A stretch of DNA of 64,000 nucleotides, taken from the NCBI GenBank assembly GCA_049303795.1, contig JBAQNM010000006.1:717-64716 (forward strand), in the 5' to 3' direction. Positions 9,476 to 52,692 of this stretch are shown in pieces (position 1 is the stretch's first letter; every line of letters starts with the position of its first letter). The notes under the pieces were generated by a model. That model was not told the origin of the DNA. It searched no databases and was given only the letters and a program-made list of their open reading frames with translations. Made by a program: the position numbers and the translations under genes. This DNA comes from Candidatus Moraniibacteriota bacterium. Its GTDB lineage: Bacteria > Patescibacteriota > Minisyncoccia > Moranbacterales > UBA2206.

Positions 9476-10243
9476 ATGAAACTAGACAATATTTTGAATC
9501 TATTTAATATTAGAGAAACAGAGAAAGAAATTTTTAAGATTTGCTTTGAATCTGATGGGATTGGGGCTAGCGAAATTGCCAAAAAAATAGGAATTAACCG
9601 CACTTCGACTTATGATTTTTTGGATAATTTGGTTAAAGCCGGTCTAATCATTGAATCACAAAAACAAGGAGTAAAAAAATTTTACGTCCAAAAACCGGAA
9701 AAAATCGAAGAGCTAATTAAAGAAAAAGAAGGAAAAGTTTCAGTTGCTAAAAAATCGATAGAGGATCTTAAAAATAATTTTTACCAAAATAAAAAAAGAA
9801 TTGCCCCAAAAATGCAGTTCTACGAAGGAAAAGAAGAATTACGACAGATGATGAAAGATTTGCTATTATATCAAAACATAACAATCTATTCATTCTGGCC
9901 AATTGAGAATATTATTCAAGCTCTTGGAAAAGATTTTTACAGAGAATTTCATGTAAAAAGAGTCGCTAGTAACATTAAAATTAAAGTTATTTGGCCACAA
10001 AAACATACTAAGCAAAAAGAGAAGCACTCTTTTCTTGAAGGATCTGAAAATTTCAAAAGAGAAATCAGAATCTTACCTGAAGATATAGACTTTAATCTCG
10101 GCTACACTATTTATAGTAATAATGTTAGATTTATGTCCTCTCAAAAAGAAGGCTACGGATTTATAATTGAGAGCCAAGAAATGGCAGATACAATGAAAAA
10201 ACAATTTGAGATTATTTGGAAAATATCTAAACCCTTATCTTAA
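9476..10243 (+). CDS. TrmB-like winged-helix transcriptional regulator, paralog 2 of 9
   Basis: N-terminal wHTH (EKEIFKICFESDGIGASEIAKKIGINRTSTYDFLDNLVKAGLI). C-terminal GYTIYSNNVRFMSSQKEGYGFIIESQEMADTMKKQFEIIWKISKP is shared with the other paralogs. Confidence 0.6.
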   Translation: MKLDNILNLFNIRETEKEIFKICFESDGIGASEIAKKIGINRTSTYDFLDNLVKAGLIIESQKQGVKKFYVQKPEKIEELIKEKEGKVSVAKKSIEDLKNNFYQNKKRIAPKMQFYEGKEELRQMMKDLLLYQNITIYSFWPIENIIQALGKDFYREFHVKRVASNIKIKVIWPQKHTKQKEKHSFLEGSENFKREIRILPEDIDFNLGYTIYSNNVRFMSSQKEGYGFIIESQEMADTMKKQFEIIWKISKPLS

Positions 10244-18619: not shown

Positions 18620-19363
18620 CTATCTATGATTCACATACTGCTTCGACCTTTTCCAGATTATTTCAAACATTGCCGTTAAGGCATTCTTTACTTTAATATT
18701 TTCAATGACAATACACAGACTGTCTTCCGGAATCATAACAACAGTTTTATTTGAAAATAGATAAAGCATAATTTTAAAATCATCAAACATGGCGCTAGTT
18801 CGAATTTGAATTTTGTGATTTTGAATAACAAACTCATCTTTTTCACTGGAAGGAATAATGGTACGGGATTTTATTCCTAGCTTTTTCTTCTCTGTCAATA
18901 AGTCTTTCCAAAAATCATAGCCTAACTTGAAAGCAGAACGAATATCCCCTTCTATTGTTAATAGCTCGTCTTTTTCTGGATTTAAAACGATAATCTCTTT
19001 TAATGTTTCTTTCAGACCCGTGTTTGTATCATAAAATCTTATTTTATTTCCAGCCGATTTTTGCTCAAATGCATTTTCCAATTGAGGCATTAGAGCATCC
19101 AAAAGATAATACTGATCCTTGATTCGTGAGAGCAGTATCTTTGGATTTTTTATATAATACCTCTTTCTTTTTTTGATTATCTCCATGGCAATCAAATCTT
19201 TCTCTGCCATTTGATCAATCACTAAATATAGGGATGTTCTTTTGATTCCTGTATTTTTTGATATTTCCTGAAGAAATTGCGGTCCTTTTTGAAGAAGGGA
19301 AAGATAAATTTTTCCTTGACTGTCAGGCAAGCCAATTTTTTCTAGTTGTTCTTTTGTTATCAT
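18620..19363 (-). CDS. TrmB-like winged-helix transcriptional regulator, paralog 3 of 9
   Basis: N-terminal wHTH (GKIYLSLLQKGPQFLQEISKNTGIKRTSLYLVIDQMAEKDLI). C-terminus ...LTAMFEIIWKRSK. Confidence 0.6.
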   Translation of the reverse strand: MITKEQLEKIGLPDSQGKIYLSLLQKGPQFLQEISKNTGIKRTSLYLVIDQMAEKDLIAMEIIKKRKRYYIKNPKILLSRIKDQYYLLDALMPQLENAFEQKSAGNKIRFYDTNTGLKETLKEIIVLNPEKDELLTIEGDIRSAFKLGYDFWKDLLTEKKKLGIKSRTIIPSSEKDEFVIQNHKIQIRTSAMFDDFKIMLYLFSNKTVVMIPEDSLCIVIENIKVKNALTAMFEIIWKRSKQYVNHR

Positions 19364-20942: not shown

Positions 20943-21692
20943 TTATTTTGTTAAGCTCCAAATCAAATCAAATTTGCTTTTCTCGCTTTTAGCTATTTCT
21001 TCACTTTCGATTTTAACGGCAATTAGCTCTTTTTTGGAGGTGAAAATTGCTACTGTATTTTGATATATTAAAACAAAAGATGGGTGATAAAAATCTGCTG
21101 GTAGAAATTTTATTTCTCGTAAATCGCTAGCATTTTTTTCACTCGAAAAAAAATCTTTAGGAAAAAATTCTGCCACTTCTTTCTCAAAATATAAAGCTTT
21201 TATCTTGGAATTATTTTTTATTCTTTCGGGAATATAGTATTTTTGATCATATTCTTGCCCAACTATTTCATAAATTTTTTTGAGAGATCCAATAGCTCGG
21301 ATAGTTTCGTTCATTTTTAATGATTCATTGGCAATTGAAATGTAACCTTCTTTTCCCTCATACATAGTCACTCTCGGCTTGTAATAAGAGTTTTTTTGAA
21401 TAGCATTAAGTTCAGGGATTATTTCATTGACCTCGCTCAATCTTTTTTTTAATTGATCAGAAAGCAAAGTTGGTGACGAAGCAACAAAACGCAAACCATT
21501 GGGTAATTTAAAATTTCCCATCAAACCTTTTTCTTCAAGATTTTTTGCAATCAAATATGCTGAACTTCTTTTAATCCCAGCTATTTTAGCGATTCTGGCT
21601 AGAGGTGCTTCGCCTAATTTCAAACCAGCCAGATATAGTCGTGTTTCTTCATTGCTTAGTCCATAATTTTTCAAAACTTGTTCAATATTCAT
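20943..21692 (-). CDS. TrmB-like winged-helix transcriptional regulator, paralog 4 of 9
   Basis: N-terminal wHTH (ETRLYLAGLKLGEAPLARIAKIAGIKRSSAYLIAKNLEEKGLM). C-terminus ...SKFDLIWSLTK. Confidence 0.6.
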   Translation of the reverse strand: MNIEQVLKNYGLSNEETRLYLAGLKLGEAPLARIAKIAGIKRSSAYLIAKNLEEKGLMGNFKLPNGLRFVASSPTLLSDQLKKRLSEVNEIIPELNAIQKNSYYKPRVTMYEGKEGYISIANESLKMNETIRAIGSLKKIYEIVGQEYDQKYYIPERIKNNSKIKALYFEKEVAEFFPKDFFSSEKNASDLREIKFLPADFYHPSFVLIYQNTVAIFTSKKELIAVKIESEEIAKSEKSKFDLIWSLTK

Positions 21693-23502: not shown

Positions 23503-24288
23503 ATGGATATAATAAAAATCTTAGAAAAAATCAATTGCACGGATTTTGAAGCCAGAACTTTCCTGGCGCTCTTGGAGGAATCAAAAGGCGCGAGCGTTTT
23601 GGGTTTGAGTAAAAAGTTAAATCTGCCTCGTCCTACAATTTATGGTCATATAGAATCTTTGATTGAAAAAGGGTTGGCAAAAAAAGGCGTGGGAGAAACC
23701 GGGGCAGTTTTTTATGCTGAAGATAAGGAAAATATTCTAAGCATTTATAATGAAAAAATTGAAGAAATGAAAAAGGCCCGGGAAAATTTTTCTGAGGCAT
23801 TTAAAAATAAAGATTATGGAGCCACTTATCAGCCAAAATTAATCCACTATTCCACTAAAGATGCTGCCAAATCAATTTTGCGCGATATTTTGAGATCAAG
23901 AGAAAAGGAAACTTATTGGTTCTGGCCTCTCAAAGAAATGCTGAAAGTAATTCCGGAAGAGGTTCTGCAAAATTTTAATGAAGAAAGGGTAAGAAGAAAA
24001 ATTTGGACAAATATACTTTGGCCACCAAAAAGAAAAATTGATATAAAAAAATATCCCTTGCTTGGGCCTTGGAACGAGAAAGAATCTTTGCGCAGGATAA
24101 AAATTTTACCGGAAAATATCGATCAGACTTTAGGTTATGCGATTTATGGCGACAAAGTAGCCTTCATTTCTTCCGATAGGGAAAATTACGGCATGATTAT
24201 TGACAGCCGAGAACTTGCCCAAACTCTGAAAGCTCAATTTGATTATTTTTGGAAAATATCAAGACTTATAAAACAAGAATCAGTCTAA
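23503..24288 (+). CDS. TrmB-like winged-helix transcriptional regulator, paralog 5 of 9
   Basis: N-terminal wHTH (FEARTFLALLEESKGASVLGLSKKLNLPRPTIYGHIESLIEKGL). C-terminal GYAIYGDKVAFISSDRENYGMIIDSRELAQTLKAQFDYFWKISR. Confidence 0.6.
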   Translation: MDIIKILEKINCTDFEARTFLALLEESKGASVLGLSKKLNLPRPTIYGHIESLIEKGLAKKGVGETGAVFYAEDKENILSIYNEKIEEMKKARENFSEAFKNKDYGATYQPKLIHYSTKDAAKSILRDILRSREKETYWFWPLKEMLKVIPEEVLQNFNEERVRRKIWTNILWPPKRKIDIKKYPLLGPWNEKESLRRIKILPENIDQTLGYAIYGDKVAFISSDRENYGMIIDSRELAQTLKAQFDYFWKISRLIKQESV

Positions 24289-28463: not shown

Positions 28464-29210
28464 TCAGATTAAATTTTTAGAATATACTTTTGCTCCACTC
28501 CATGATAACTCATAAACTTGACGCATAGCATCTGCAATAACTCTACTTTCAATAATTATTGACATATTTTCCGTATAATTCATAAAAGCGACTTTGTTTT
28601 TGTATATATTTACTTCAATTTGAGGATTGAAAATTTCTTCAGAAACAATAATTGTTTCTGATAACTCTTTTTTATCTAAGAATTTATGCTTTGTATCCCA
28701 CAAAGATCCTTGTCCAGCAATACGACGCGCCTTAATGTTTAAGTTAGTACGTTTTTCAATGTAATTATAATCCCTAGGAAAACGTTCAAAAAAAGCATTA
28801 GTATTCCATTCTAAAATTTCTCCTGGCTTTTCCCTGAGGGTATCTTCGTAAATATTGTGAATCGCATTTTCTCCTTCAAAAAAAAGAATCTTAGGTTTAG
28901 TTTCATTTTTATTATAGATCGCTTCTAGCTGAGGTAGGTTTTTTTTAATTTCAGCTTGAACTTCTCCAGCTATGCTTAAAAGTTTCTCCGGAGGTTCAGC
29001 TACAAATTTAGTTTTATTTTTTATTATAGTTTTTCCTACAACTCCACGATTTACAAGGTAACCCAAAACAGAATAGGCAGTGGTTCGTTTTAGATTAGCT
29101 TTTTTAGCAATGTCTTGCGCAGAGGATGTGCCTAATTCTAAAGAAGCCAAATAAATTTTTGCTTCATTATGGGAAAAACCAAATTTTTCTAAAATGTGTT
29201 CTATTTTCAT
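28464..29210 (-). CDS. TrmB-like winged-helix transcriptional regulator, paralog 6 of 9
   Basis: N-terminal wHTH (EAKIYLASLELGTSSAQDIAKKANLKRTTAYSVLGYLVNRGVV). C-terminus ...MRQVYELSWSGAK. Confidence 0.6.
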   Translation of the reverse strand: MKIEHILEKFGFSHNEAKIYLASLELGTSSAQDIAKKANLKRTTAYSVLGYLVNRGVVGKTIIKNKTKFVAEPPEKLLSIAGEVQAEIKKNLPQLEAIYNKNETKPKILFFEGENAIHNIYEDTLREKPGEILEWNTNAFFERFPRDYNYIEKRTNLNIKARRIAGQGSLWDTKHKFLDKKELSETIIVSEEIFNPQIEVNIYKNKVAFMNYTENMSIIIESRVIADAMRQVYELSWSGAKVYSKNLI

Positions 29211-31618: not shown

Positions 31619-31704
31619 ATTTCTATTTTAACCTAATTTGACATAAATTCCAATACTTGCTATTTTATACTATCAATCTAAAAAAACCAACTATTTGTTA
31701 TTCT

Positions 31705-32835
31705 ATGAGCCTATTGCCACAAGAACAACTGCATAAATTCATTGATAGCTCAAAAGAGATTATTATTTTTATTCCTGAAAATCCCAGCTTCGATGCTATC
31801 GGAAGTGCGTGGGCGCTGTCTATTTTTTTGAGCAAAAAAAATATTAAAACAACCATTGTTTCTCCGGATCAAGATGAAAATAAAGTTGCCTTTCTTCCTA
31901 GGCCAGAAAATGTCATTTCCACTATTTCTGGAGCAAGAGAGTTTGTTCTATCTTTTAATACTACTAGAAATAAAATTACCGGCTTGCGCCAAGAAACAGT
32001 TGGCGATTTTTTTAATGTCTATCTTACTCCTGAAAAGGGTTCGATTGATCCACGTGATTTTTCATTTATTCTCGCCAAATTTAAATATGACCTAATTATT
32101 GTTCTTGATAGTCCGGACTTGGAAAATTTAGGAAAGGTATATATTAATAATTCTGATCTTTTTTTTGAAGTACCAATTGTCAACATTGATCACCGTAGTA
32201 ATAATGAAAATTTTGGTCAAATAAATTTAGTTGATTCAAAGGCATCATCCTGCGCTGAAATTCTAAAAACTGCTTTGGAAAATATAGACAGCAATATTCT
32301 TGATGAGGGCATTGCCACTTGCCTTTTGACCGGAATTATAGGAGCGACTAATAATTTTCAAAGAAAAAACACCACTCCAAAAGCTCTTCTAAATGCAGCT
32401 GAATTGATGGATAAAGGAGCTGATCAACAAGGCATTATTCGTTTTATGTATAAAACACAACCATTAAATATTCTCAAATTACTTGGTCGCGTCATGAGCA
32501 AATTAAATTGGGAGGAAAAACATAAACTAGCCTGGACAACACTGTCGATTGAAGATTTTGTTCAAAGTCGCTCCACTTCAGAGAATTTACCCATAATTTT
32601 AGAAAAACTTCAAGAAAACTATACTGACGGACAAATTTTTATGATCATCTATAATGATAAGCCGGAAAGTTCTGTAGCAATTATCAAAACGACCAGTCTT
32701 GAGATTTCACAAAAAATAGCTTTGAATTTTGGCGCCTTACACAAGCAAGATTTATTAGAAATCAAATGCGCTCAAGGTGATTTAAATCTTGCCACAAGAC
32801 TTATTCTTGAAAAATTAGACAACATCCTACTCTAA
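31705..32835 (+). CDS. DHH/DHHA1-family phosphoesterase (NrnA-like) with partly degenerate catalytic motifs
   Basis: NPSFDAIGSAWAL corresponds to the NrnA motif NPDGDAIGS. NIDHRSNNENFGQINLVD corresponds to DHHxxxxFGD with DHH replaced by DHR. C-terminal DHHA1-like region. Confidence 0.5.
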   Translation: MSLLPQEQLHKFIDSSKEIIIFIPENPSFDAIGSAWALSIFLSKKNIKTTIVSPDQDENKVAFLPRPENVISTISGAREFVLSFNTTRNKITGLRQETVGDFFNVYLTPEKGSIDPRDFSFILAKFKYDLIIVLDSPDLENLGKVYINNSDLFFEVPIVNIDHRSNNENFGQINLVDSKASSCAEILKTALENIDSNILDEGIATCLLTGIIGATNNFQRKNTTPKALLNAAELMDKGADQQGIIRFMYKTQPLNILKLLGRVMSKLNWEEKHKLAWTTLSIEDFVQSRSTSENLPIILEKLQENYTDGQIFMIIYNDKPESSVAIIKTTSLEISQKIALNFGALHKQDLLEIKCAQGDLNLATRLILEKLDNILL

Positions 32836-32865
32836 TTCTCTTACATATTTAATATTCTTTTTTAA

Positions 32866-32892
32866 AAACCCTTAAAAATAGGGTTTTTATTT
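32866..32892 (+). terminator. Terminator hairpin AAAAACCCTtaaaaatAGGGTTTTTATTTTTT downstream of the NrnA-like gene
   Basis: Stem ACCCT/AGGGT followed by a T-run. Confidence 0.55.
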
Positions 32893-32917: not shown

Positions 32918-35900
32918 ATGAATTTAAGTAAACTATTTATTGAAAACAAAATTATGATAAAAATTACAAAAAAAGCTACTGGGGATAATGCTTCGAAAAA
33001 AGCTGTTTCTGAAAAACTCGTTTCGACCATGCGCCACAAGTCCGAGGAAGAAGAAGCGTCACGTTTTGCTGCCACACTTAATCTCCCCTATATTGATACC
33101 AATATCGTCCCGGTTTCTTTGGATAATTTAAAACTCATCGAGGAAGAAGATGCAAGAAGATTAAGCGTCGCTATTATTCAAAAAATAGGACGCATTATTA
33201 CCATAGTCTCAACGGATCCATCCAAAACAGAAACTAAAGAATTTATAAACAAATTTTGTAAAGAATTTGGGCTTGAAGCTAAGATTTTCGTTGTTTCACA
33301 TTATAATTTTGAAAAAATTCTAGAAAAATATAAAAAAATTGTTTTTACAGAAATTCTTGATCAACTCAGCCTAAATATCAACGACCGTTATGCCTCCAAT
33401 TTTGAAAAATCCCTTAGAGATTTAGTTATGTTAAAAGAAAGAATCAAAGAACTTCCTGTTACTCAAGTTCTTGGTATTATTATGGCCGGAGCAACTGAAC
33501 TCGGCGCATCTGATGTCCATTTTGAACCAGAAGAAAATGACTTTCGCTTACGTTATCGTGTGGATGGAGTTTTGCAAGATGTAGCTTTTTTTCCTATTAA
33601 TGTCTACAGGAGCATCATATCAAGAATAAAAATGATGGCTGGTATGAAATTAAACTTAAATGATATTGCTCAAGATGGAACTTTTGCTATAAATATTGGC
33701 GATAAAAAAATTGATACTCGCGTATCTTCTATTCCCGGGAATTATGGAGAATCACTTGTGATTAGAATGCTTGACCCTGCTGCTGCGCATGTTGATATTG
33801 AAGTTTTGGGTCTCCAAGGATTGGCATATGAAACAATTCAAAAACAAATCCAAGCCCCTAACGGAATGATTCTCACAACTGGACCAACCGGTAGTGGAAA
33901 AACGACCACTCTTTATTCCATCATCAACAAACTCAATACGCCAGACAAAAAAATTATCACCATTGAAGATCCAATCGAATATCAATTAAAGGGAATATCT
34001 CAAACTCAAATTGAAAAAGATCGCGGCTACACTTTTGCTAATGGACTTCGTGCTATTGTTCGTCAAGATCCTAACATAATTCTTGTTGGTGAAATTCGTG
34101 ATGATGAAACAGCTGATATTGCAATCAATTCAGCACTTACCGGCCATCTTGTATTATCCACTTTTCACACTAACAGCGCCATTGCTTCCGTTCCTCGTTT
34201 AATTGAAATGGGAGTAAAGCCTTCTTTTATTGCCCCTGCCGTTAACGCTATTATTGCTCAACGTCTAGTGAGAAAATTATGTTCCTGCAAAGAAGAATAC
34301 TTTCCTGCCAAAGAAACAATTGACTCACTTAAAAAAATTCTTTCCATTATTTCGCCTCGCGCTAAAGTGGAAATTCCCAAAGATATCACCAAGCTTTATC
34401 GACCAAAGGGCTGTCTTAAATGTAATAATACTGGATACAAAGGTCGTATTGGTATTTTTGAAGTGTTCACAATCAGTCCCGAAACAGAAAAACTGATTAT
34501 GGACTTGGCCGGAGAAACTGAAATCACCATGTCAGTTTTAGAAGAAGGTATGGTCACAATGCTTCAAGATGGCATTCTAAAAGCAATTAGTGGAATAACT
34601 TCTATTGATGAAGTGAAAAAAGAAACTGGACAAGGAGAATTTTTGGAAAATATATATGAAAAATTAATGTCACAATTACTTGGAAGCACACTAACTATCA
34701 AAAAAGACTTCTATGAAAAAGCGCTGGAAAATATTGATGACTTTTCTAAACTGCAAACATTATTTTCTGAAACCAAGATTATTGATATTATAAAAATTAT
34801 TTTTTCTGCTGCTCAAATTTTGGGTGTTGGCGATGTCCATATTGAACCAGAAAAAAATGATGTCAAAATTCGCTTCCGAGTTGATGGAATCTTACAAACA
34901 ATCGCTGTCATCCCCCTCACTGAATACACTACTTTCATAGGACAAATTAAACTCTTAAGTGGAGTGAAGACTGAGGTGCGCCAAGGCGTAATTGATGGTC
35001 GTTTCAGTGTTGTTTTCGATGATGAAATAGAAAGTTTAAAAGAAAAAACAGTTGATATTCGCGTCTCTATTATTCTTGGTGGATATGGAGAAACGATTGT
35101 AATGCGTTTGCTTAGTAAATCAACCGTTGAATTAAATCTGGATAAACTAGGAATCAGAAAGCAAAATCTGGATAGAATAAAACATGAAATTTCTAAGCCA
35201 AATGGGGTTGTGCTTAATACTGGACCAACTGGTAGTGGAAAAACGACAACGCTTTATGCTATTTTAAATTATGTCAACAACCCAAAGATAAAAATCATTA
35301 CTGTTGAAGATCCGATTGAATATCAAATGGAAGGCATCTTGCAAACACCAATCAATGAAAAAGAAGGCTACACCTTTTCTACAGCTCTACGATCACTACT
35401 CAGACAAAATCCTGACATTATGATGATCGGTGAAATTCGTGATGATGAAACCGCCCAAGTTGCAGTGCAAGCTGCGCTGACCGGCCATCTCGTGCTTTCC
35501 ACTATTCACACCAATGACGCCGCCGGAACAGTTACTCGTATAATTAATATGGGAGTTAACCCTCAAGATGTAACATCCGCTGTCAATGCCTTTATTGCTC
35601 AGCGTTTAGTTCGCAAACTCTGCACCTGCAAAACTAAAATCACCCCAACTGAAGAAGAAAAACAAAAAATTGAAGGTGTCCTAAAAACAATCAGTTCAAA
35701 CGCTAAAGTAGAAATTCCTAAAACTGATGAAATATACAAACCAAATGGCTGTGAAAAATGTAACCATCTTGGTTATAAAGGTCGCACAACTATCAGCGAG
35801 GTTTTTGTCTTGTCGCGAGAAATTCAAGCAGAAATTATGCGCGGAGCAATTACATCAGAATTAAAAGACAAAGCCATTGAAGAAGGTATGATTTCAATGA

Positions 35901-35974
35901 CTCAAGATGGAGTTTTGAAAGTTTTGGAAGGTGAGACGACTTTAGAAGAGGTGGAGAGGGTTACGGATCTTTAG
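32918..35974 (+). CDS. Tandem (duplicated) GspE/PilB-family type II secretion / type IV pilus assembly ATPase in one 1018-aa polypeptide
   Basis: N-terminal GspE-N-like domain. Two complete ATPase cores, each with Walker A GPTGSGKTTTLY (about residues 325 and 770), Asp box IITIEDPIEYQ / IITVEDPIEYQ, Walker B ILVGEIRD / MMIGEIRD, His box LVLSTFHTN / LVLSTIHTN and a tetracysteine CxC...CxxC motif. Confidence 0.85.
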   Translation: MNLSKLFIENKIMIKITKKATGDNASKKAVSEKLVSTMRHKSEEEEASRFAATLNLPYIDTNIVPVSLDNLKLIEEEDARRLSVAIIQKIGRIITIVSTDPSKTETKEFINKFCKEFGLEAKIFVVSHYNFEKILEKYKKIVFTEILDQLSLNINDRYASNFEKSLRDLVMLKERIKELPVTQVLGIIMAGATELGASDVHFEPEENDFRLRYRVDGVLQDVAFFPINVYRSIISRIKMMAGMKLNLNDIAQDGTFAINIGDKKIDTRVSSIPGNYGESLVIRMLDPAAAHVDIEVLGLQGLAYETIQKQIQAPNGMILTTGPTGSGKTTTLYSIINKLNTPDKKIITIEDPIEYQLKGISQTQIEKDRGYTFANGLRAIVRQDPNIILVGEIRDDETADIAINSALTGHLVLSTFHTNSAIASVPRLIEMGVKPSFIAPAVNAIIAQRLVRKLCSCKEEYFPAKETIDSLKKILSIISPRAKVEIPKDITKLYRPKGCLKCNNTGYKGRIGIFEVFTISPETEKLIMDLAGETEITMSVLEEGMVTMLQDGILKAISGITSIDEVKKETGQGEFLENIYEKLMSQLLGSTLTIKKDFYEKALENIDDFSKLQTLFSETKIIDIIKIIFSAAQILGVGDVHIEPEKNDVKIRFRVDGILQTIAVIPLTEYTTFIGQIKLLSGVKTEVRQGVIDGRFSVVFDDEIESLKEKTVDIRVSIILGGYGETIVMRLLSKSTVELNLDKLGIRKQNLDRIKHEISKPNGVVLNTGPTGSGKTTTLYAILNYVNNPKIKIITVEDPIEYQMEGILQTPINEKEGYTFSTALRSLLRQNPDIMMIGEIRDDETAQVAVQAALTGHLVLSTIHTNDAAGTVTRIINMGVNPQDVTSAVNAFIAQRLVRKLCTCKTKITPTEEEKQKIEGVLKTISSNAKVEIPKTDEIYKPNGCEKCNHLGYKGRTTISEVFVLSREIQAEIMRGAITSELKDKAIEEGMISMTQDGVLKVLEGETTLEEVERVTDL

Positions 35975-36024: not shown

Positions 36025-36411
36025 ATGAACGACTATATTAACAATAAATATTATAAACCAGACGTCACTGCTAAAATTATCGGTTGCGCACATAAAGTCC
36101 ATCGTTTTTTAGGTAACGGATTTCAAGAAGTAATTTACCAAAGAGCTCTGGAAATTGAATTTGGAAAAGAAGACTTGAAATTCGAAAGAGAAAAAGAAAT
36201 GGATACATACTATGAAGATAATCTTATTAGAAATAGAAGGGTAGACTTTTTAGTTGATCAAGATATTATGGTTGAATTGAAAGCTATTACAAAATTAGAA
36301 GATGTTAATATTGCTCAACTTATAAATTATATCGAGGCTTATAAAGTAAGAATTGGACTTCTTATAAATTTTGGAGCAAAAAGTTTAGAAGTGAAAAGAT
36401 ATATAAAGTAA
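36025..36411 (+). CDS. GxxExxY-family protein (PD-(D/E)xK nuclease-like)
   Basis: IIGCAHKVHRFLGNGFQEVIYQRALEIEF...VDFLVDQDIMVELKAITKLEDVNIAQLINYIEAYKVRIGLLINFG matches the GxxExxY family signature. Confidence 0.7.
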   Translation: MNDYINNKYYKPDVTAKIIGCAHKVHRFLGNGFQEVIYQRALEIEFGKEDLKFEREKEMDTYYEDNLIRNRRVDFLVDQDIMVELKAITKLEDVNIAQLINYIEAYKVRIGLLINFGAKSLEVKRYIK

Positions 36412-36420
36412 TTAAAATTT

Positions 36421-36466
36421 CAGTGTAATCAGGATAATCATGTGCTAATCATATGGTTCAGACAAT
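36421..36466. repeat. Left copy of imperfect direct repeats (CAGTG..GATAATCAtGTG..GGTTCAGACA) flanking a high-GC islet
   Basis: Matches 37846..37871 (CAGTGATAATCACGTGGTTCAGACA). The left copy carries extra short internal duplications (taatca). Confidence 0.5.
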
Positions 36467-36500
36467 TAAAAAAGGCTTTCCCATTCGGGTTAGCCCTTTT
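36467..36500. terminator. Bidirectional terminator hairpin AAAAAGGCTTTCCCATTCGGGTTAGCCCTTTTTT. A near-identical copy lies at 59605..59640.
   Basis: Stem GGGCT/AGCCC with an internal CCC/GGG and T-runs on both sides. Confidence 0.6.
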
Positions 36501-36527
36501 TTGTCAGGTCCTCAATCCTGATCTTAT

Positions 36528-36902
36528 TTATTTTTTAAGGATTCTATATTGCCGACCGCCTATGTTAATATCGTAATCAGCGTCATCGGGAATTTGGATT
36601 TCCATTCCTGTAGTGGTCCATTTTATTTCCTTCAGCACCCAGCTACTCAGGAAACCCTCGTAACAATTCCTGCCCGATAAATTCCGTAAACCTTTTATGA
36701 ATATTATCTGTTTTTCATAATCCATAGAGGCCTCGTCACATACGACAACCAAGACAGGGTCATCAAGAAACATTACTGAACGAGAGATGGTAACAATTAT
36801 TCCCACATCTATTTCATCTATCGTTATCCGCGAGCCATTATCACAGCCCGCAAAACCCAGACCAAGAACAACAATCATCAGCATCAGCGTTATTTTTTTC
36901 AT
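36528..36902 (-). CDS. Putative lipoprotein (lipobox LGLGFAGC), first listed gene of the high-GC islet operon
   Basis: Start placed at the internal MKKITLMLMIVVLGLGFAGCDNG. The ORF track extends further 5'. Local GC is well above that of the surroundings. Confidence 0.4.
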   Translation of the reverse strand: MKKITLMLMIVVLGLGFAGCDNGSRITIDEIDVGIIVTISRSVMFLDDPVLVVVCDEASMDYEKQIIFIKGLRNLSGRNCYEGFLSSWVLKEIKWTTTGMEIQIPDDADYDINIGGRQYRILKK

Positions 36903-37234
36903 TTCCATCCCCTTTCTTTGTTTTCCCTGGCCTTCATCACGGCCAGCGAGATTAGGGCTCCCACAAGAAAAATCGTAGGGCCAATATAGACGACGTCTTT
37001 TGCCGATTGAATTATATCGTTTTTTTGCAACGCAATCCATATCGGCGCGTTGCCGATTCCTAATCCAATGGCAACAATAGAAAGTATCAGTACTGCTTTT
37101 TCTGTGGGCTCACTCCGTAATGTAAACGGAAAAAACACTCCCACAAAAAAGAACAATGGCCAGGAAAAATATGAGAAAAAACTCCCAATTGCCCCAACCA
37201 GCATCATTCCCAGAAAATAACCAGCGATACGCAT
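36899..37234 (-). CDS. Hypothetical membrane protein (111 aa) in the high-GC islet
   Basis: Three hydrophobic helices. ATGA overlap with the downstream lipoprotein gene. Confidence 0.4.
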   Translation of the reverse strand: MRIAGYFLGMMLVGAIGSFFSYFSWPLFFFVGVFFPFTLRSEPTEKAVLILSIVAIGLGIGNAPIWIALQKNDIIQSAKDVVYIGPTIFLVGALISLAVMKARENKERGWK

Positions 37235-37252
37235 TGCTTCCTCCTCCGCTCT

Positions 37253-37438
37253 TCAAAAATTTATTTTACATGCGACGAACCCCGTCACAATCAAAATCAA
37301 TTCGTGGGAAAGCTTTCCTGCTGTTGAAACATTCTCGATGGCCGTCTGAAATCCTGATGCATAATCGATCAGATAAACGATCATGCAACCAAACACCACA
37401 ATTCCCATCTTAACTGCTATCCTCGGATAGTCTATCAT
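37253..37438 (-). CDS. Hypothetical small membrane protein (61 aa) in the high-GC islet
   Basis: Two hydrophobic helices. Operon context. Confidence 0.3.
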   Translation of the reverse strand: MIDYPRIAVKMGIVVFGCMIVYLIDYASGFQTAIENVSTAGKLSHELILIVTGFVACKINF

Positions 37439-37475
37439 AGCATCCTCCCCCTTTTATCAGAAAAATTGTTTTTCA

Positions 37476-37787
37476 TTACTCAGCCGGAACAGTCGTTCCC
37501 GGAATCAACTCCACGGAAACAACATCACCATCCTCATCAAGAATGATGCAGCCTTTGAACTCGAATTTTGAGATTGACAATCGATGCTCGTGGCTGATTC
37601 CTTTGGAGAATTTTTCCATGTTGTTGTGGTGTCCCATTTCCATTATGCTCCACAGAGCAATAACGAAACCAATTATTAATGTTATTAAGATTATTTTTTT
37701 ACTGGTCTCAGATATAGAGGGCAAGACTAAAAACAAACAACAACCATAAACCATTAAACTTCCAATCACGGTGGCTATCGCATACAT
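37476..37787 (-). CDS. Hypothetical membrane protein (103 aa) with a His-rich loop (MEMGHHNNMEKF...HEH) in the high-GC islet
   Basis: Two TM helices plus a His-rich segment. Operon context. Confidence 0.35.
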   Translation of the reverse strand: MYAIATVIGSLMVYGCCLFLVLPSISETSKKIILITLIIGFVIALWSIMEMGHHNNMEKFSKGISHEHRLSISKFEFKGCIILDEDGDVVSVELIPGTTVPAE

Positions 37788-46714: not shown

Positions 46715-47473
46715 ATGAACAGAATAGAAAAAATATCCAAGGCACTCAATCTTTCAATTTACGAAGCAAAGATATATATTGCGCTCCAACAAAATGGCCC
46801 TCTCCTGATAAAAACACTTTCTAGACATGCAGAAATTCCAAGAACAACTATCTATACTCCGTTGCAAAAACTCCTCAAAAGGGGATTCGCTTCAAAAACT
46901 GTTTTTGGAAAACGTACATATTATTCCGCAATTCAACCAGAATATCTTCTTGGATTTATTGATGAACAAAAAAATCTTCTTCAGCAAACGATTTTAGAAT
47001 TAAATGGATTGGGAAAAATTCAGTCAGAAAAAAATAATTTTGAAACTACCTTTCATAGTGGAATAAACGGAATTAAAACTGCCGGATTATTTTTTTTACA
47101 TAATACCAAAGAAAAAACATGGTACTCTTTTGAAAACCTAGACTTAATAACAGAAAAGGTTAGTTTTGAGTTTGAAACATTTTATATAAAAGAGCGTGTC
47201 GCAAGAAAAATTAAATCAAAAATGATTCTTTCTTTCTCGGAAAAATCTTTTATATCTAATAATTTTTTAAAAAATGACATAAAAGACCTAAGGGAAACCG
47301 TATTGCTTTCTCAAAATCAATACCCCTTCCAAACAACAGTAGTTGCTACAAAAGGATTGGCACTTCTAATAAATCCCAATGAAAATCCTTTTGCTTTGTT
47401 AATTCGCAATAAACATTTAGCCGATACGTTTATCACTATCCATAAATGTTTATGGGGAAAATATAAAGCATAG
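46715..47473 (+). CDS. TrmB-like winged-helix transcriptional regulator, paralog 7 of 9
   Basis: N-terminal wHTH (EAKIYIALQQNGPLLIKTLSRHAEIPRTTIYTPLQKLLKRGF). Palindrome GACGA-tattg-TCGTC at 46681..46695 immediately upstream. Confidence 0.55.
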   Translation: MNRIEKISKALNLSIYEAKIYIALQQNGPLLIKTLSRHAEIPRTTIYTPLQKLLKRGFASKTVFGKRTYYSAIQPEYLLGFIDEQKNLLQQTILELNGLGKIQSEKNNFETTFHSGINGIKTAGLFFLHNTKEKTWYSFENLDLITEKVSFEFETFYIKERVARKIKSKMILSFSEKSFISNNFLKNDIKDLRETVLLSQNQYPFQTTVVATKGLALLINPNENPFALLIRNKHLADTFITIHKCLWGKYKA

Positions 47474-48302: not shown

Positions 48303-49046
48303 ATGCTTTTAGAAAAATTACAAATTGCTGGGTTATCAGAAAAAGAGGCTAAGGTATATGTAGCTGTTTTGGAATTGGGAGAGGCAACAATCGCCGAAAT
48401 TACAAAAAAATCCAAGATTAAAAGATCCACTATTTATGACATACTTAATACTTTAAAGGAAAAAGGCATAATAAGTCAGACTCGCCTCAACAAAAGACCT
48501 ATCTTTTTAGCAGAAAATCCAAAAAAAATGCTTGAAAAATTGGAGGAGAAAAAAAGAGGACTCGAAGAAGCTGTACCAGAGTTGCTTTCGATTATGAATC
48601 TTTTGGATAAGAAACCGAAAATTCGCTACTTTGAAGGAATAGAGGGAGTAAGAGAGGTTTTTGAAGATACACTTCGATATCCCAATCAAGAACTTCTAAC
48701 CTGGTTTTCTCATCCTAATATTAATCTTGGTGAAGATTTTTTTTGGAAATATTACAATCCAGAGCGCTTAAAAAGAAAAATTTGGGGCAGGGCAATCGCC
48801 ACTGATACTCCGCAAAACAGAGCTCTGAACGAAACTTTTGGAAATAAATGGCTAGCAAAAATGAAAATTTCCTCCAATAAATCTCTTCTTAAACTTGATA
48901 TCGAAATAAAGATTTATGGGAAAAATAAGGTTGGAATTGTTTCATACAAAGAAGATCTGGGAATTGTCATTGAAAGTAAAAAAATATATGACGGACTAAA
49001 AGCAATCTTTGAAGTAATGTGGGATTTATTGCCGGAAATAAAATAA
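48303..49046 (+). CDS. TrmB-like winged-helix transcriptional regulator, paralog 8 of 9
   Basis: N-terminal wHTH (EAKVYVAVLELGEATIAEITKKSKIKRSTIYDILNTLKEKGII). C-terminus ...LKAIFEVMWDLLPEIK. Confidence 0.6.
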   Translation: MLLEKLQIAGLSEKEAKVYVAVLELGEATIAEITKKSKIKRSTIYDILNTLKEKGIISQTRLNKRPIFLAENPKKMLEKLEEKKRGLEEAVPELLSIMNLLDKKPKIRYFEGIEGVREVFEDTLRYPNQELLTWFSHPNINLGEDFFWKYYNPERLKRKIWGRAIATDTPQNRALNETFGNKWLAKMKISSNKSLLKLDIEIKIYGKNKVGIVSYKEDLGIVIESKKIYDGLKAIFEVMWDLLPEIK

Positions 49047-49101: not shown

Positions 49102-49629
49102 ATGAAAAAAAAATCTGAAACTTTAAACTCAACCTTGCGAATTCTTGGCGTTGATCCCGGAACAGCCACGACTGGCTGGGCGATTATTGAAAAAAATGGC
49201 GATAAACTACTACCTTTAGCCTATGGCCACATCAGTACTTCGAAAGACAACACTGACGACGAAAGAATTTTTGAGGTTTCCAATGATCTTGCAAAAATAA
49301 TTCAAAAACACAAACCGACTGAAGCCGCTATTGAAAGTCTTTTCTTTTTTAAGAATCAAAAAACCGTCATCCAAGTTGCCCAGTCAAGAGGCGCAATTCT
49401 CTTGACTTTATGCCAAAATAGTGTTACAGTGTCCAGTTATACTCCGCTCCAAGTCAAGCAGGCCTTGACCGGATATGGACGAGCGGAAAAAAAACAAATG
49501 CAGTTGATGACTAAAAATATTCTGCATCTAAGCTCACTACCCAAGCCAGATGACGTGGCAGATGCATTGGCAATTGCGGTTTGTCATGTTAATAGCAGAT
49601 TTCTAATCAATTTAAAAAAACACTCATGA
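49102..49629 (+). CDS. ruvC: Crossover junction endodeoxyribonuclease RuvC
   Basis: ILGVDPGTATTGWAII start, catalytic Asp/Glu pattern, and 175 aa. Confidence 0.9.
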   Translation: MKKKSETLNSTLRILGVDPGTATTGWAIIEKNGDKLLPLAYGHISTSKDNTDDERIFEVSNDLAKIIQKHKPTEAAIESLFFFKNQKTVIQVAQSRGAILLTLCQNSVTVSSYTPLQVKQALTGYGRAEKKQMQLMTKNILHLSSLPKPDDVADALAIAVCHVNSRFLINLKKHS

Positions 49630-50291
49630 ACGAAATTAATTTCAGCCTCAGTCCAATCTTGACTTTCTTTTTGGATAAAGGCGTCCCTTTTGAAACAATA
49701 AAATTGATTTTAATGCTTCCGATTATCGCCACTTTTATCGCATTCCTCCGTCAAGTGGTTGGAATCAAAGCTTTTGGAATTTATACTCCCCTTCTTGTCA
49801 CTTTTGCTTTCCTAGCAACAAATGGGTTACGCTATGGTATTGCAATTTTTATCACAGTCATTCTCGTTGGAATGTTTATGCGAACCGCTTTGAAATCTTT
49901 TCGCTTGCTCTATCTTCCTCGCGTTGCAATTATGATCACAGTGGTAGCACTCTCTATTTTAATCATGCTTGCAATTGGCGGTGGCTTTAAAAGAACTGGC
50001 CTTGCTTCTGTTTCAATCTTCCCCATTTTGATTATGATCACTCTAGTTGAAAAATTTATCGCTGTTCAAATTGAAAAAGGCGACCGCGCCGCAATCATTT
50101 TGGCGATTGAAACGCTGATCATCTCTATTGTTGGTTTTTATATTGCCAGCTGGCAAGCTCTTATTCATTTTATTGCTTATTACCCTTGGGTTATTCTTTT
50201 AACAATCCCTGTTAATATTGCTTTTGGTAAATGGACAGGGCTACGCCTTACCGAATATCTGCGTTTTGGACAAATCATAAAAAGAACTTAG
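49626..50291 (+). CDS. Polytopic (about 7 TM) membrane protein. Candidate 7TM partner of the RimK-like ATP-grasp / retropepsin system.
   Basis: 221 aa, almost entirely hydrophobic helices. Start overlaps the ruvC stop (ATGA). Immediately precedes the ATP-grasp/protease fusion. Confidence 0.45.
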   Translation: MNEINFSLSPILTFFLDKGVPFETIKLILMLPIIATFIAFLRQVVGIKAFGIYTPLLVTFAFLATNGLRYGIAIFITVILVGMFMRTALKSFRLLYLPRVAIMITVVALSILIMLAIGGGFKRTGLASVSIFPILIMITLVEKFIAVQIEKGDRAAIILAIETLIISIVGFYIASWQALIHFIAYYPWVILLTIPVNIAFGKWTGLRLTEYLRFGQIIKRT

Positions 50292-50300
50292 GTTTATTAT

Positions 50301-51731
50301 ATGTTTGAACTTATCAAAAAAAGCTTCATCTGTTATAAAGCAGGTCGCAATGTATTAGGAATGAATTCCAGAAATTTGGAATATATTCGACCATTTAATC
50401 GCATTAATGCTAAAAAAATTGCTGATGATAAGCTTCTAAGCAAAAGGGTTCTTAAAAAAGCCGAGATTGCTGTTCCAAAACTTATTGGAAAAATATCAGA
50501 TCTTGCTAGTTTAGATAATTTTGATTGGCAAACCCTGCCAGATAGTTTTGTTTTAAAACCCAATAAAGGTTTTGGCGGAGAAGGTATTGTCGTTGTTTAT
50601 GGTAAGAAAAAAAATAGATCTGATGCTTGGATAAAAGCCGATGGAACTCTTATTACCATTGAAGATTTAAAAAGCCATGTTCGCAATATTATTGATGGAT
50701 CATTTTCTTTATCTGGCGTTCCTGATATTGCTTTTTTTGAAGAACGCTTAAAACTGTTAAAGCTTTTCAAGCCCTACGCCTTCAAAGGAATTCCTGATAT
50801 TCGTATTATTGTTTTCAATAAAATGCCTATCATGGCCATGCTTCGCTTGCCCACTAGAGAGTCCAATGGAAAAGCCAATTTGGCCCAAGGAGCAATTGGT
50901 GTCGGAATCGACCTTGCCTCTGGGACAACTACAACAGCAGTAATGGGAAAGAAAAAAATTATTGAATATCTTCCCGGCACAAGACTGCTACTTTCCGGAA
51001 TTAAAATTCCCTATTGGATGGATATTCTAAACCTCGCTGTTCGCTCACAAGAAATTTCCGGACTTGGTTTTCTCGGCGCCGACATTGCGATTGATAAAGA
51101 ACTAGGGCCAGTAATTTTGGAATTAAACGCTCGTCCTGGTCTTGCAATTCAAGTTGCCAATCTTGACGGTTTAAAGGGTCGCCTAAAAAAAGCAGCTGGA
51201 ATAAAAATCAAGACAATTAAAAAAGGTATCAGAGTTGGCATGGATCTTTTTGGAGGAGAAATCGAAGAAGAGCTGGAAGAAATTTCTGGAAAAAAAGTAA
51301 TAGGTGCAATAGAAAAAGTGAAGCTAATTGGAAAAGATGAAAAAGAAATTGAAGTGGAAGCTAAAATAGACACTGGTGCTTATTCATCTTCGATTGATGA
51401 AGAATTAGCTAAGGAATTGGGGTTTTCCGAATTAATTGAAAAATTTGCAACAATCGATCTATCAAAATACACTATTACAGCCGAGAATGAAACCCTAATA
51501 AAAGAAGATGTTTTAAAAAATTATAAAAATCAAATGCCTTTACTTGAAGATGTGGCTGTGATTTTCTCAGCTAGTGGCTCATCAATCCGTCCAATGGTGA
51601 AAATTTCTTTTATTTTAGATGCAATAAACATTGAAACTAAGGTTAATATAACAGATCGAAAAACACTAGCCTACCCAATGCTTATTGGAAGAAGAAATTT
51701 GGGTAAGTTTTTAATTAATATAAATAAGTAA
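50301..51731 (+). CDS. Alpha-L-glutamate-ligase-related (RimK-like) ATP-grasp protein fused to a C-terminal retropepsin-like (putative Zn-protease family, DTGA) domain
   Basis: ATP-grasp motifs (FVLKPNKGFGGEGI, ILELNARPGLAIQVAN). C-terminal VIGAIEKVKLIGKDEKEIEVEAKIDTGAYSSSID resembles retropepsin-like aspartyl protease domains found next to RimK-like ligases. Confidence 0.55.
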   Translation: MFELIKKSFICYKAGRNVLGMNSRNLEYIRPFNRINAKKIADDKLLSKRVLKKAEIAVPKLIGKISDLASLDNFDWQTLPDSFVLKPNKGFGGEGIVVVYGKKKNRSDAWIKADGTLITIEDLKSHVRNIIDGSFSLSGVPDIAFFEERLKLLKLFKPYAFKGIPDIRIIVFNKMPIMAMLRLPTRESNGKANLAQGAIGVGIDLASGTTTTAVMGKKKIIEYLPGTRLLLSGIKIPYWMDILNLAVRSQEISGLGFLGADIAIDKELGPVILELNARPGLAIQVANLDGLKGRLKKAAGIKIKTIKKGIRVGMDLFGGEIEEELEEISGKKVIGAIEKVKLIGKDEKEIEVEAKIDTGAYSSSIDEELAKELGFSELIEKFATIDLSKYTITAENETLIKEDVLKNYKNQMPLLEDVAVIFSASGSSIRPMVKISFILDAINIETKVNITDRKTLAYPMLIGRRNLGKFLININK

Positions 51732-51735
51732 CCTC

Positions 51736-52692
51736 GTGAAAAAAGTTCTCATTCTTTTCGGAAAATCCGATTGGGAAAATAATACCCTTTTTTTAAATAA
51801 AGATTTTCAAGCATCCTATGAGTGTCTATATTCTTTGGCTAAAGAAAATGGCATTCAAATGTATCGCGCCTCCTATGAATGGTATGATTATGAAAGTCAT
51901 GTTTTTAAATATGCTTGGACATATGAAGACGCCTCTGGATGGAAAAGAGTTTATAATATTTCGCCTGATTTAATTTATGACAAAACAAGGGCTAGTATGG
52001 AAACTTATTTTAAAAAAGAACTCATTGCCAAGCGCTATCGTTTTGTTAATAGTTTGAGATTTACTTACATGCTAGATGACAAACTGACAACTAGCATGAT
52101 TTTTCACAAATGGAGCAAAAAAAGCTGGATTGTTAATAATCCAGAAAAGTTAAAAAAAATTCTTCCCAAAATAAACTCGCGTAGATTTGTGATCAAGCCA
52201 ATTTCTGAAAGTGGTGGGAAAAACGTTCAAATTCTTGAAAGAGAAGAGGCTTTAGAAAAAGTAACATTTAGTAACGACTATATTATTCAAGAATTTATTG
52301 ATTCTTCTTCTGGCATTCCTGGTATAAGCGAAAGCATGCATGATTTAAGACTTGTTTTTGTAAATAATAAAATCAGTTATGCCTACATGCGAGAACCAGC
52401 AGAAGGAAATTATCTAGCTAATCTTTCTCAAGGAGGATCACTTTCTATCGTTCCAACAAACGACATTCCAAAATCATTACACCCAATCATTCGTTGCGTT
52501 AATAGAGTTTTTGAAACATTTAACCCGCGAATTTTCTCAATCGATTTTATGTTTGATGAAAAAAAAAGACCTTGGATAGTTGAACTCAATTCTATGCCTG
52601 GACTTTATTTTACTCCACAAGAAAAACCTTATATGCTAGAATTATACCAAGAAATTATTGAAGTATTTTTGAAAAAATTAGAACTAAAATAA
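51736..52692 (+). CDS. ATP-grasp family ligase
   Basis: FVIKPISESGGKNV and WIVELNSMPGL motifs. Confidence 0.55.
   Translation: MKKVLILFGKSDWENNTLFLNKDFQASYECLYSLAKENGIQMYRASYEWYDYESHVFKYAWTYEDASGWKRVYNISPDLIYDKTRASMETYFKKELIAKRYRFVNSLRFTYMLDDKLTTSMIFHKWSKKSWIVNNPEKLKKILPKINSRRFVIKPISESGGKNVQILEREEALEKVTFSNDYIIQEFIDSSSGIPGISESMHDLRLVFVNNKISYAYMREPAEGNYLANLSQGGSLSIVPTNDIPKSLHPIIRCVNRVFETFNPRIFSIDFMFDEKKRPWIVELNSMPGLYFTPQEKPYMLELYQEIIEVFLKKLELK

Follow-up and report, generated by a model that had tools for sequence, protein, structure and literature searches.

A PilB/GspE-type ATPase with two ATPase units fused in one chain in Moraniibacteriota and related Parcubacteria

One gene with two ATPase units

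A 64-kb stretch from the genome of a Candidatus Moraniibacteriota bacterium (assembly GCA_049303795.1, contig JBAQNM010000006.1, positions 717 to 64,716; hereafter the window), which has a low GC content of ~0.30-0.40, contains one unbroken open reading frame (ORF) of 1018 amino acids (aa) at 32918..35974 on the plus strand. Its predicted product combines two ATPase units of the PilB/GspE type in a single chain. Each unit (U1 and U2) consists of an N2 domain (N2D) and a C-terminal domain (CTD), and the domain order is N1D–(N2D-CTD)unit1–linker (~50 aa)–(N2D-CTD)unit2. The positions of these elements in the window are as follows (residues are numbered from the start of the 1018-aa ORF):

32918..35974, plus strand: coding sequence of the double-unit PilB/GspE-type ATPase; the longest ORF has 1018 aa, the start is likelier at the ATG at 32954 (M13), which gives 1006 aa
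33035..33340, plus strand: putative N1 domain, residues ~40-141, divergent and GSPII/MshEN-like; weak match to PF05157, predicted alpha/beta fold with a predicted local distance difference test score (pLDDT) of 75-86
33341..33448, plus strand: N1-N2 linker of unit 1, residues 142-177, with low pLDDT at 142-160
33449..33817, plus strand: N2D of unit 1, residues 178-300, with R268 and R283 as arginine fingers and QDGT in place of QDGR
33818..34627, plus strand: CTD of unit 1, residues 301-570, with Walker A at 322-330, Asp box at 350-354, Walker B glutamate E392, His box at 408-419 and cysteines 455/457/499/502
34628..34777, plus strand: linker between the units, residues 571-620, with a conserved junction motif
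34778..35158, plus strand: N2D of unit 2, residues 621-747, with R715 and R730 as arginine fingers and IDGR in place of QDGR
35159..35971, plus strand: CTD of unit 2, residues 748-1018, with Walker A at 769-777, Asp box at 797-801, Walker B glutamate E839, His box at 855-866 and cysteines 902/904/945/948

The Pfam model of the ATPase domain (T2SSE, PF00437) matches the protein in two full-length stretches with a total of 760 bits (cut-off 24.9), one at residues 178-567 in unit 1 and the other in the C-terminal half in unit 2. With a single ORF, two PF00437 matches and every motif present twice, the architecture agrees with the first-pass annotation of the window, which had described a single polypeptide with two complete GspE/PilB ATPase units. 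The completeness holds for the two N2D-CTD cores with all their motifs but does not extend to the N1 domain, which is missing from unit 2. Unit 2 opens with the linker at residues 571-620, which is related to the N1-N2 linker of unit 1, and the only putative N1 domain, one copy per two ATPase units, is located ahead of unit 1. Its match to PF05157 (MshEN/GSPII) covers residues 54-138 (E=6.8e-4) and, at 20.0 bits, lies under the cut-off of 23.1; the alignment to the PilB model TIGR02538 starts at residue 7, and several orthologues have a precomputed PF05157 match. Because the homologues have 1005-1011 aa and begin at a residue that aligns with M13 of the window protein, the true start is probably the ATG at 32954 and the product probably has 1006 aa; the length of 1018 aa given in the first-pass annotation is that of the longest ORF.

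The fused gene is conserved among relatives

A search of 5.8 billion protein clusters recovered more than 120 clusters (90% identity) of proteins with 1004-1024 aa, which share 66-99% identity with the window protein over ~99% coverage. They originate from assemblies in NCBI, JGI, ENA and Logan and are named Moranbacteria, Moraniibacteriota or Parcubacteria. Among the GTDB genomes (one per species), there are 130 relatives; the best 80 of these, each from a different species representative, are all full length and have 50-85% identity. When 1.84 billion representatives clustered at 50% identity were scanned exhaustively with HMMER, 15,275 GspE-like clusters were obtained at E≤1e-30, among them about 13 further full-length double-unit clusters with identities down to 39%, whose named members belong to the Parcubacteria group or Paceibacterota. 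The gene is widespread in uncultured Parcubacteria (Moranbacteria), with more than 250 full-length double-unit homologues in total.

The two halves of the window protein (residues 142-570 and 579-1016) are 45% identical (E=1e-137), with the lowest identity in the linker (24%), followed by the N2D (38%), the Cys-containing C-terminal part (46%), and the CTD core (60%). At the DNA level, the identity of the halves does not exceed 70%, over 417 bp, which rules out an assembly collapse or a recent tandem repeat. The junction between the units is also under constraint: eight of its residues (T570, G571, G573, L576, Y580, L583, M584, and L588) are invariant in 61 orthologues.

The first-pass annotation had asked whether the fusion is conserved in related genomes or results from a frameshift or assembly error, and had named relatives with two separate genes as the observation that would speak for the latter. 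The outcome is decisive: throughout the best 80 of the 130 GTDB relatives and in the more than 120 clusters, the double ATPase is encoded by one continuous gene. Conservation of the fusion therefore excludes a frameshift that merged two genes. The more general explanation that adjacent pilB-like genes were joined by a chimeric assembly, by the loss of a stop codon or by a sequencing frameshift is left with a negligible probability: independent samples and assemblers yielded the uninterrupted frame in more than 250 proteins, 80 species-representative genomes share it, the junction residues are invariant, and the halves are too unlike in their DNA to be mis-joined repeats. The only oddities that touch on this question are two low-coverage fragments (P0161 and P0171) and a singleton with three units (P0004; see below). 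Neither fragment is half of a split gene: P0161, on a contig of 2.4 kb, genuinely encodes one unit and is not followed by a unit 2, and P0171 lies on a contig of 1.9 kb with 1.4× coverage, where its N-terminal part looks chimeric.

Both units are of the PilB/GspE type and appear catalytically competent

A motif scan located the same set of catalytic motifs in both units: Walker A (GPTGSGKTT) at 322 and 769, the Asp box (EDPIE) at 350 and 797, Walker B (GEIRD) at 391 and 838 with the catalytic glutamates E392 and E839, and the His box at 408 and 855. Each unit also has the four cysteines of the tetracysteine motif that had been reported for each core; their number is as stated, but the spacing of the first pair is CxC (CSC and CTC) and not the canonical CxxC. 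In an alignment of 120 orthologues, the Walker A motif, the Asp box, the Walker B glutamate, the His-box histidines, and the eight cysteines are 97-100% conserved in both units; the four cysteines of each unit, which form a putative zinc cluster, are conserved in 100% of the orthologues. The arginine fingers of Geobacter metallireducens PilB are R271 and R286 (PMC5424180). Alignment of unit 1 to the structure of this protein (5TSG; chain index minus the 20-residue tag) places their equivalents at R268/R283, to which R715/R730 correspond in unit 2, and all four residues are invariant. Both units retain all residues for ATP binding, hydrolysis, and inter-subunit sensing and look catalytically competent. 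The mean pairwise identities among the 120 orthologues are 0.81 (U1) and 0.76 (U2) for the CTD and 0.68 (U1) and 0.66 (U2) for the N2D; by these sequence comparisons, the two units are under similar purifying selection.

The assignment to the extension branch of the family is based on profile scores and on the cysteine cluster. When the units are scored alone, unit 1 and unit 2 reach 480.2 and 411.7 bits with the PilB model TIGR02538 and 464.3 and 435.4 bits with the GspE model TIGR02533, each of which matches the window protein twice, and only 175.7 and 163.8 bits with the PilT/PilU model TIGR01420. All these values are below the respective cut-offs (675.65 as the equivalog cut-off for PilB, 630.25 for GspE, and 319.1 for PilT/PilU), and the whole protein exceeds the equivalog cut-offs (879 bits with TIGR02538) solely by summing the two units; a canonical PilB of the Parcubacteria lineage (locus L082) also remains under the cut-off of TIGR02538 (577.6). 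A tetracysteine zinc cluster is characteristic of the PilB/GspE clade, and ATPases of the PilT/PilU clade lack it (PMC5424180). By both lines of evidence, the two units are of the PilB/GspE type and not of the PilT type. The same evidence rules out that unit 2 is a PilT-like retraction module. The nearest solved structures in the PDB are the single-unit proteins PilB, GspE, and PilF, and no chain with two units was found among these relatives.

The two units have diverged from each other

Across 258 proteins, U1 and U2 each have their own fixed residue (≥85%) in 11 columns of the alignment. They include I349/V796 beside the Asp box, D384/N831 just before Walker B, and N404/Q851 before the His box. 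A second difference concerns the QDGR motif of the N2D, which is intact in each of the 119 canonical PilBs where it could be located. The first three residues are kept in 100% of the U1 sequences and R in only 12% (QDG-not-R); U2 has R in 100%, has lost Q, and carries S instead of G in 78% (not-Q-D-x-R). Such a reciprocal degeneration is expected if the units hold non-equivalent positions. Together, the fixed columns and the reciprocally split motif suggest that U1 and U2 are sub-functionalised, a possibility already raised for the two halves in the first-pass annotation.

The tandem fusion arose repeatedly

In a neighbour-joining tree of single units, the U2 units of the main family form one clade, and the U1 units fall among single-unit proteins of the PilB type. 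Independently of the tree, a single origin of the main family is indicated by a junction motif, G-x3-[FY]-[ILV]-E-x-[IL]-Y, that is common to both of its sub-clades but absent from the double-unit proteins P0128 and P0133, and by conserved synteny: the order TsaE, DHH, ATPase, and RuvB, with the TsaE gene divergently oriented, is shared by loci whose ATPases have identities of 44-85% and extends to P0124, which is 44% identical. By these sequence features, the main-family fusion arose once, in the ancestor of a large part of the Parcubacteria/Paceibacteria, and was inherited vertically at one chromosomal position. Some of its distant members show a variant P-loop in U2 (GPTSAGKTT or GPTSSGKTT), and P0127 has lost the Cys motif of U2.

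Three other proteins, P0128 (994 aa), P0133 (995 aa), and P0142 (1047 aa), resemble the window protein in that they likewise have two T2SSE units per chain, connected by a linker of 42-55 residues. They differ from it in their junctions, which in P0128 and P0133 are unlike those of the Moranbacteria type, and in their origin: in each case, the two units of the protein pair together in the tree, with bootstrap values of 100, 100, and 86%. Because the units of each protein are mutual closest relatives, the three proteins represent independent duplications. According to the tree, a tandem fusion of this ATPase has occurred at least four times, and one of the fusions was fixed in a large part of the Parcubacteria. 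P0142 (locus L088, 8001-11144; GCA_964384625.1, contig CAYLNH010000035.1) is represented by one cluster only. Its two ATPase units are preceded by two cytoplasmic domains of the PilC/GspF type (two PF00482 matches), and the Walker A motif of its unit 1 (GPTGSGTTT) has lost the lysine. The gene sits after the genes of an extracytoplasmic function (ECF) sigma factor and an anti-sigma factor in an unrelated organism of higher GC content.

The only triple-unit protein among the 5.8 billion clusters is P0004 (1460 aa; locus L001, 10001-14383; JGI 3300022698, Ga0248662_100121). It has three intact units of the types 1-2-2 and is encoded at the syntenic locus of one contig, and may reflect either a genuine rarity or an assembly error. 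Two further candidates for triple-unit proteins, at loci L081 and L085, were rejected: the long tblastn matches correspond to the double gene followed by a separate canonical pilB.

Gene neighbourhood and coexistence with canonical PilB

The flanks of the ATPase gene are strongly conserved. Among 83 related loci, a DHH gene is directly upstream in 75 and a TsaE gene divergently upstream in 58; the downstream genes encode RuvB (66 loci), a bPH_2 protein (62 loci), and an LTD/PKD protein (53 loci). In the window, the upstream region comprises:

31657..32835, plus strand: DHH-family phosphoesterase gene, the co-oriented upstream neighbour in 75/83 related loci, across deep divergence
32863..32889, plus strand: intergenic terminator-like hairpin with a T-run, past the end of the DHH gene and ahead of the ATPase gene

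Since the terminator-like hairpin between the genes is strong, a simple co-transcription of the DHH and ATPase genes is disfavoured in this genome, and the DHH gene is not supported as an operon partner despite the strongly conserved adjacency. A scan for promoters found no enrichment over shuffled sequence.

The observation of the first-pass annotation that the window has no pilC, pilM or pilin genes next to the ATPase was borne out: a Pfam scan of 53 ORFs of the window returned no PilC, PilM, PilD, or PilT, and none of the frames in the window encodes a pilin-type N-terminus. A pilin-like ORF beside the double ATPase was encountered only once in 86 loci (L069, 13024-13521; MHQIKLYSRGFTLVELLVVIAILG…). 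The contig of this locus is labelled 'Candidatus Bathyarchaeia archaeon', probably as a result of a binning error, as it resembles Parcubacteria in both gene content and synteny.

The double ATPase is an extra paralogue beside an ordinary single-unit PilB. Orthologues of the canonical PilB found in the lineage of loci L081, L082, and L085 (see below), with 61-79% identity, are common in Moraniibacteriota, including complete genomes of 1.1 Mb, and one 196-kb contig carries both the double ATPase and canonical PilB at a distance of ~70 kb. At three loci (L081, L082, and L085), canonical PilB is encoded immediately downstream of the double ATPase; the protein at L082 (12986-14770) has 594 aa and a clear MshEN domain (E=1.4e-16). 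Because canonical PilB is present in the same genomes, the double ATPase is an additional paralogue and not the sole PilB of the lineage. The lineage with adjacent genes has lost the TsaE-DHH neighbourhood, and NusA is encoded upstream of the ATPase instead. At locus L090 of a Parcubacteria genome (8621-11779; contig Ga0376277_0000544), a histidine kinase and a response regulator are encoded immediately ahead of canonical PilB; in the complete genome CP064974.1, an SLT_2 lytic transglycosylase precedes it. In both genomes, neither of the PilB-type genes is part of a classical pil operon.

Several other features of the window were recorded in passing. Between the ATPase gene and ruvB lies a variable insert (36025-37787), with a gene of the PD-(D/E)XK_3 nuclease family at 36025-36411 and minus-strand ORFs without a Pfam match, one of which has an internal lipoprotein-like signal (…MKKITLMLMIVVLGLGFAGC). 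In most related loci, ruvB begins 0.3-1.5 kb past the ATPase gene, and a PDDEXK gene is present in one of 83 (L031). Further downstream, at 49626-52692 and also in loci L002 and L004, the gene of a 7TM_transglut membrane protein precedes those of two ATP-grasp proteins of the RimK / sugar-transfer type, one of which is fused to a Zn-protease-like domain; this cluster is kept in relatives downstream of the ATPase-RuvB-YebC-RuvC block. The 64 kb also contain nine paralogues of ~245-260 aa with an N-terminal winged-helix domain of the TrmB type (PF01978) and an unannotated C-terminal part (4158-4892(-), 9476-10243(+), 18620-19363(-), 20943-21692(-), 23503-24288(+), 28464-29210(-), 46715-47473(+), 48303-49046(+), and 60382-61110(+)), an unusual local expansion of one regulator family in a small genome.

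Comparison with known ATPases

The closest counterparts of the window protein, according to the best NCBIfam and PDB matches, are the PilBs of Geobacter metallireducens (5TSG/5TSH) and Myxococcus xanthus (3JC8). They have the N1D-N2D-CTD order that the window protein, with its putative N1D, also shows, and share with it the Walker A motif, the Asp box, the atypical Walker B motif, the His box, the two arginine fingers of the N2D, and the four-Cys cluster. Unlike PilB, the window protein has a second N2D-CTD unit fused in frame, only one N1D per two units, and an altered QDGR motif in both units; its gene has no adjacent pilC or pilM, and canonical PilB is present alongside. The units score almost as high on GspE as on PilB, the former being represented by Vibrio cholerae EpsE (1P9R/4KSR/4KSS) and Klebsiella PulE, but the gene has no genes of a type II secretion system (T2SS) nearby. 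A classical T2SS is unlikely in these organisms because Patescibacteria are generally regarded as lacking an outer membrane.

Another PDB relative, PilF of Thermus thermophilus (6F8L, 5IT5), is likewise a motor of the PilB family that was enlarged by internal duplication. In PilF, the N-terminal GSPII domains have multiplied and there is one ATPase core, whereas in the window protein the duplication affects the ATPase core. Duplicated P-loop modules also make up the rings of F1/V1, KaiC, p97/ClpB, EccC, and linked ClpX, but these proteins belong to other ATPase families and none is a secretion ATPase of the PilT/VirB11 type. In the alpha3beta3 ring of F1/V1 and in engineered, covalently linked ClpX, the duplicated modules occupy alternating positions of one ring; in F1/V1, each subunit is a chain of its own, and only one of the two kinds is catalytic.

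Possible assembly of the double ATPase

The interpretation that we somewhat favour is that the protein is a genuine, vertically inherited, and covalently duplicated type IV filament assembly ATPase of the PilB/GspE branch, of which three chains form one alternating ring of six units. The trimer-of-dimers ring itself, which had already been proposed in the first-pass annotation, is plausible. In such a ring, (U1U2)3, U1 and U2 would alternate, and three N1 domains would be present. Each chain would match one protomer of a trimeric platform of the PilC/GspF type, and the two homologous cytoplasmic domains of the protomer would each contact one N2D. U1 and U2 would have begun to specialise for two non-equivalent positions, and the turnover of ATP around the ring would drive the assembly of a pilin filament, which may be a pilus or a pseudopilus for DNA uptake or secretion.

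The proposed geometry is consistent with what has been reported for related motors. In the PulE6:PulF3 model, each PulF protomer binds the N2Ds of two neighbouring ATPase subunits via Cyto1 and Cyto2 (PMC10790770); with this pairing, a chain with two units would match one platform protomer. The ring of this family consists of N2D(n)+CTD(n+1) packing units with flexible linkers between them (PMC6858323, PMC5424180), which is compatible with the joining of neighbouring units. Placement of both units in the same ring is also supported indirectly by P0142, which fuses two cytoplasmic domains of the PilC type with two ATPase units, by the independent tandem fusions in P0128, P0133, and P0142, and by the N2D of U2, which is conserved like that of U1.

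Several observations weigh against this interpretation. PilB hexamers are C2-symmetric (CCOCCO) in all structures (PMC6858323), which is awkward to reconcile with (U1U2)3 if the units are specialised, because opposite positions would always be occupied by unlike units. The ring would hold only three N1 domains. The AlphaFold2 model of the monomer (pLDDT 75, predicted template modelling score (pTM) 0.42) shows folded domains but does not predict the relative placement of the units. The single clade of U2 units has a bootstrap value of just 36%, and the triple-unit P0004, a singleton from one contig, was set aside as support for a rule that unit numbers are divisors of six. Moreover, no pilC, pilM, pilD, or pilin gene was found within ±10 kb of the double ATPase in 80 related genomes, save for the locus with the pilin-like ORF, and, as canonical PilB is present, pilus assembly can be explained without the double ATPase.

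The three remaining explanations accept the fusion but differ in what it builds. Tandem P-loop ATPases such as KaiC, p97/ClpB, and EccC of the type VII secretion system are built as stacked rings, and a double ring of six chains, with six U1 in one ring and six U2 in a second ring beneath it, would be accommodated by the ~50-residue linker, which contains three short helices and is long enough for either geometry. The structure prediction favours no arrangement, and the restriction of the N1 docking domain to U1 would be expected if only one ring faced the membrane platform. We nevertheless consider a stacked ring unlikely, because the N2D of U2, which is the membrane- and platform-facing domain in the PulE-PulF model, is conserved like that of U1 with both arginine fingers kept, because the combination of two PilC cytoplasmic domains and two ATPase units in P0142 fits units that lie side by side, and because no stacked assembly was found among the solved sequence relatives. 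A division of labour in which one unit serves mostly for regulation or structure, as the non-catalytic subunits do in the alpha3beta3 ring of F1/V1, and only three of six sites turn over ATP is distinctly unlikely. Such a role could explain the fixed differences near the active site (D384/N831, I349/V796, and N404/Q851), the different degeneration of QDGR in each unit, the P-loop variants of U2 in some distant members, the lost Cys motif of U2 in P0127, and the first unit of P0142 without the Walker A lysine; it is at odds with the conservation of the Walker A lysine, the Asp-box and Walker B glutamates, the His-box histidine, and the arginine fingers at 97-100% in both units of the 120 orthologues.

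The co-occurrence of the double ATPase and canonical PilB in the same genomes, their adjacency in one lineage, and the lack of dedicated platform or pilin genes next to the double ATPase would also be expected if the protein formed no motor of its own but co-assembled with canonical PilB or regulated it, for example in mixed rings or by competition for the platform. This scenario is very unlikely: a two-unit chain cannot complete a six-unit ring with an odd number of single units, and the two genes are usually far apart and have unrelated neighbours. Within the alternating trimer of double-unit chains, a more specific possibility can be put forward only tentatively, namely that the protein is a natural pilus motor resembling alpha3beta3, in which each of the alternating units is specialised for one cytoplasmic domain of a trimeric PilC.

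Implications for filament motors and for Parcubacteria

Sequences of this kind have been public since the first metagenomes of the candidate phyla radiation (CPR; ACD_ entries), but only under generic labels, and they are currently annotated as 'GspE/PulE family protein' or 'PilB'. No description of a tandem PilB/GspE ATPase architecture was found in the full-text literature or in a 2024 review of PilB, in a search outside of which most papers in subscription journals fall.

How ATP turnover is coupled to the filament, whether the PilC/GspF platform is a dimer or a trimer, and whether the symmetry of the motor is C2 (CCOCCO) or other are still argued (PMC5424180, PMC6858323, PMC10790770). A natural covalent dimer that is deeply conserved and has both sites intact bears on these questions, because it dictates how non-identical units follow one another around the ring, predicts a 3:3 stoichiometry of its chains with the platform, and allows one class of sites to be mutated alone. 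In homohexamers, the mutation of one class of sites requires artificial linking, as in ClpX. If the alternating ring with specialised units is true, it would provide direct evolutionary evidence for the disputed 6:3 stoichiometry of ATPase and platform, the same two-to-one module would be seen again in P0142 as a Rosetta-stone fusion, and a motor thought to be C2-symmetric could run with a built-in three-fold chemical asymmetry. The natural variant could help to test how the motors of pili and secretion systems work.

For the organisms themselves, the finding means that Parcubacteria, despite their very small genomes, keep two distinct motors of the PilB type. A second function for filaments is thereby suggested, for instance in attachment, secretion or DNA uptake, and it would be relevant to the presumed symbiotic lifestyle of the Parcubacteria.

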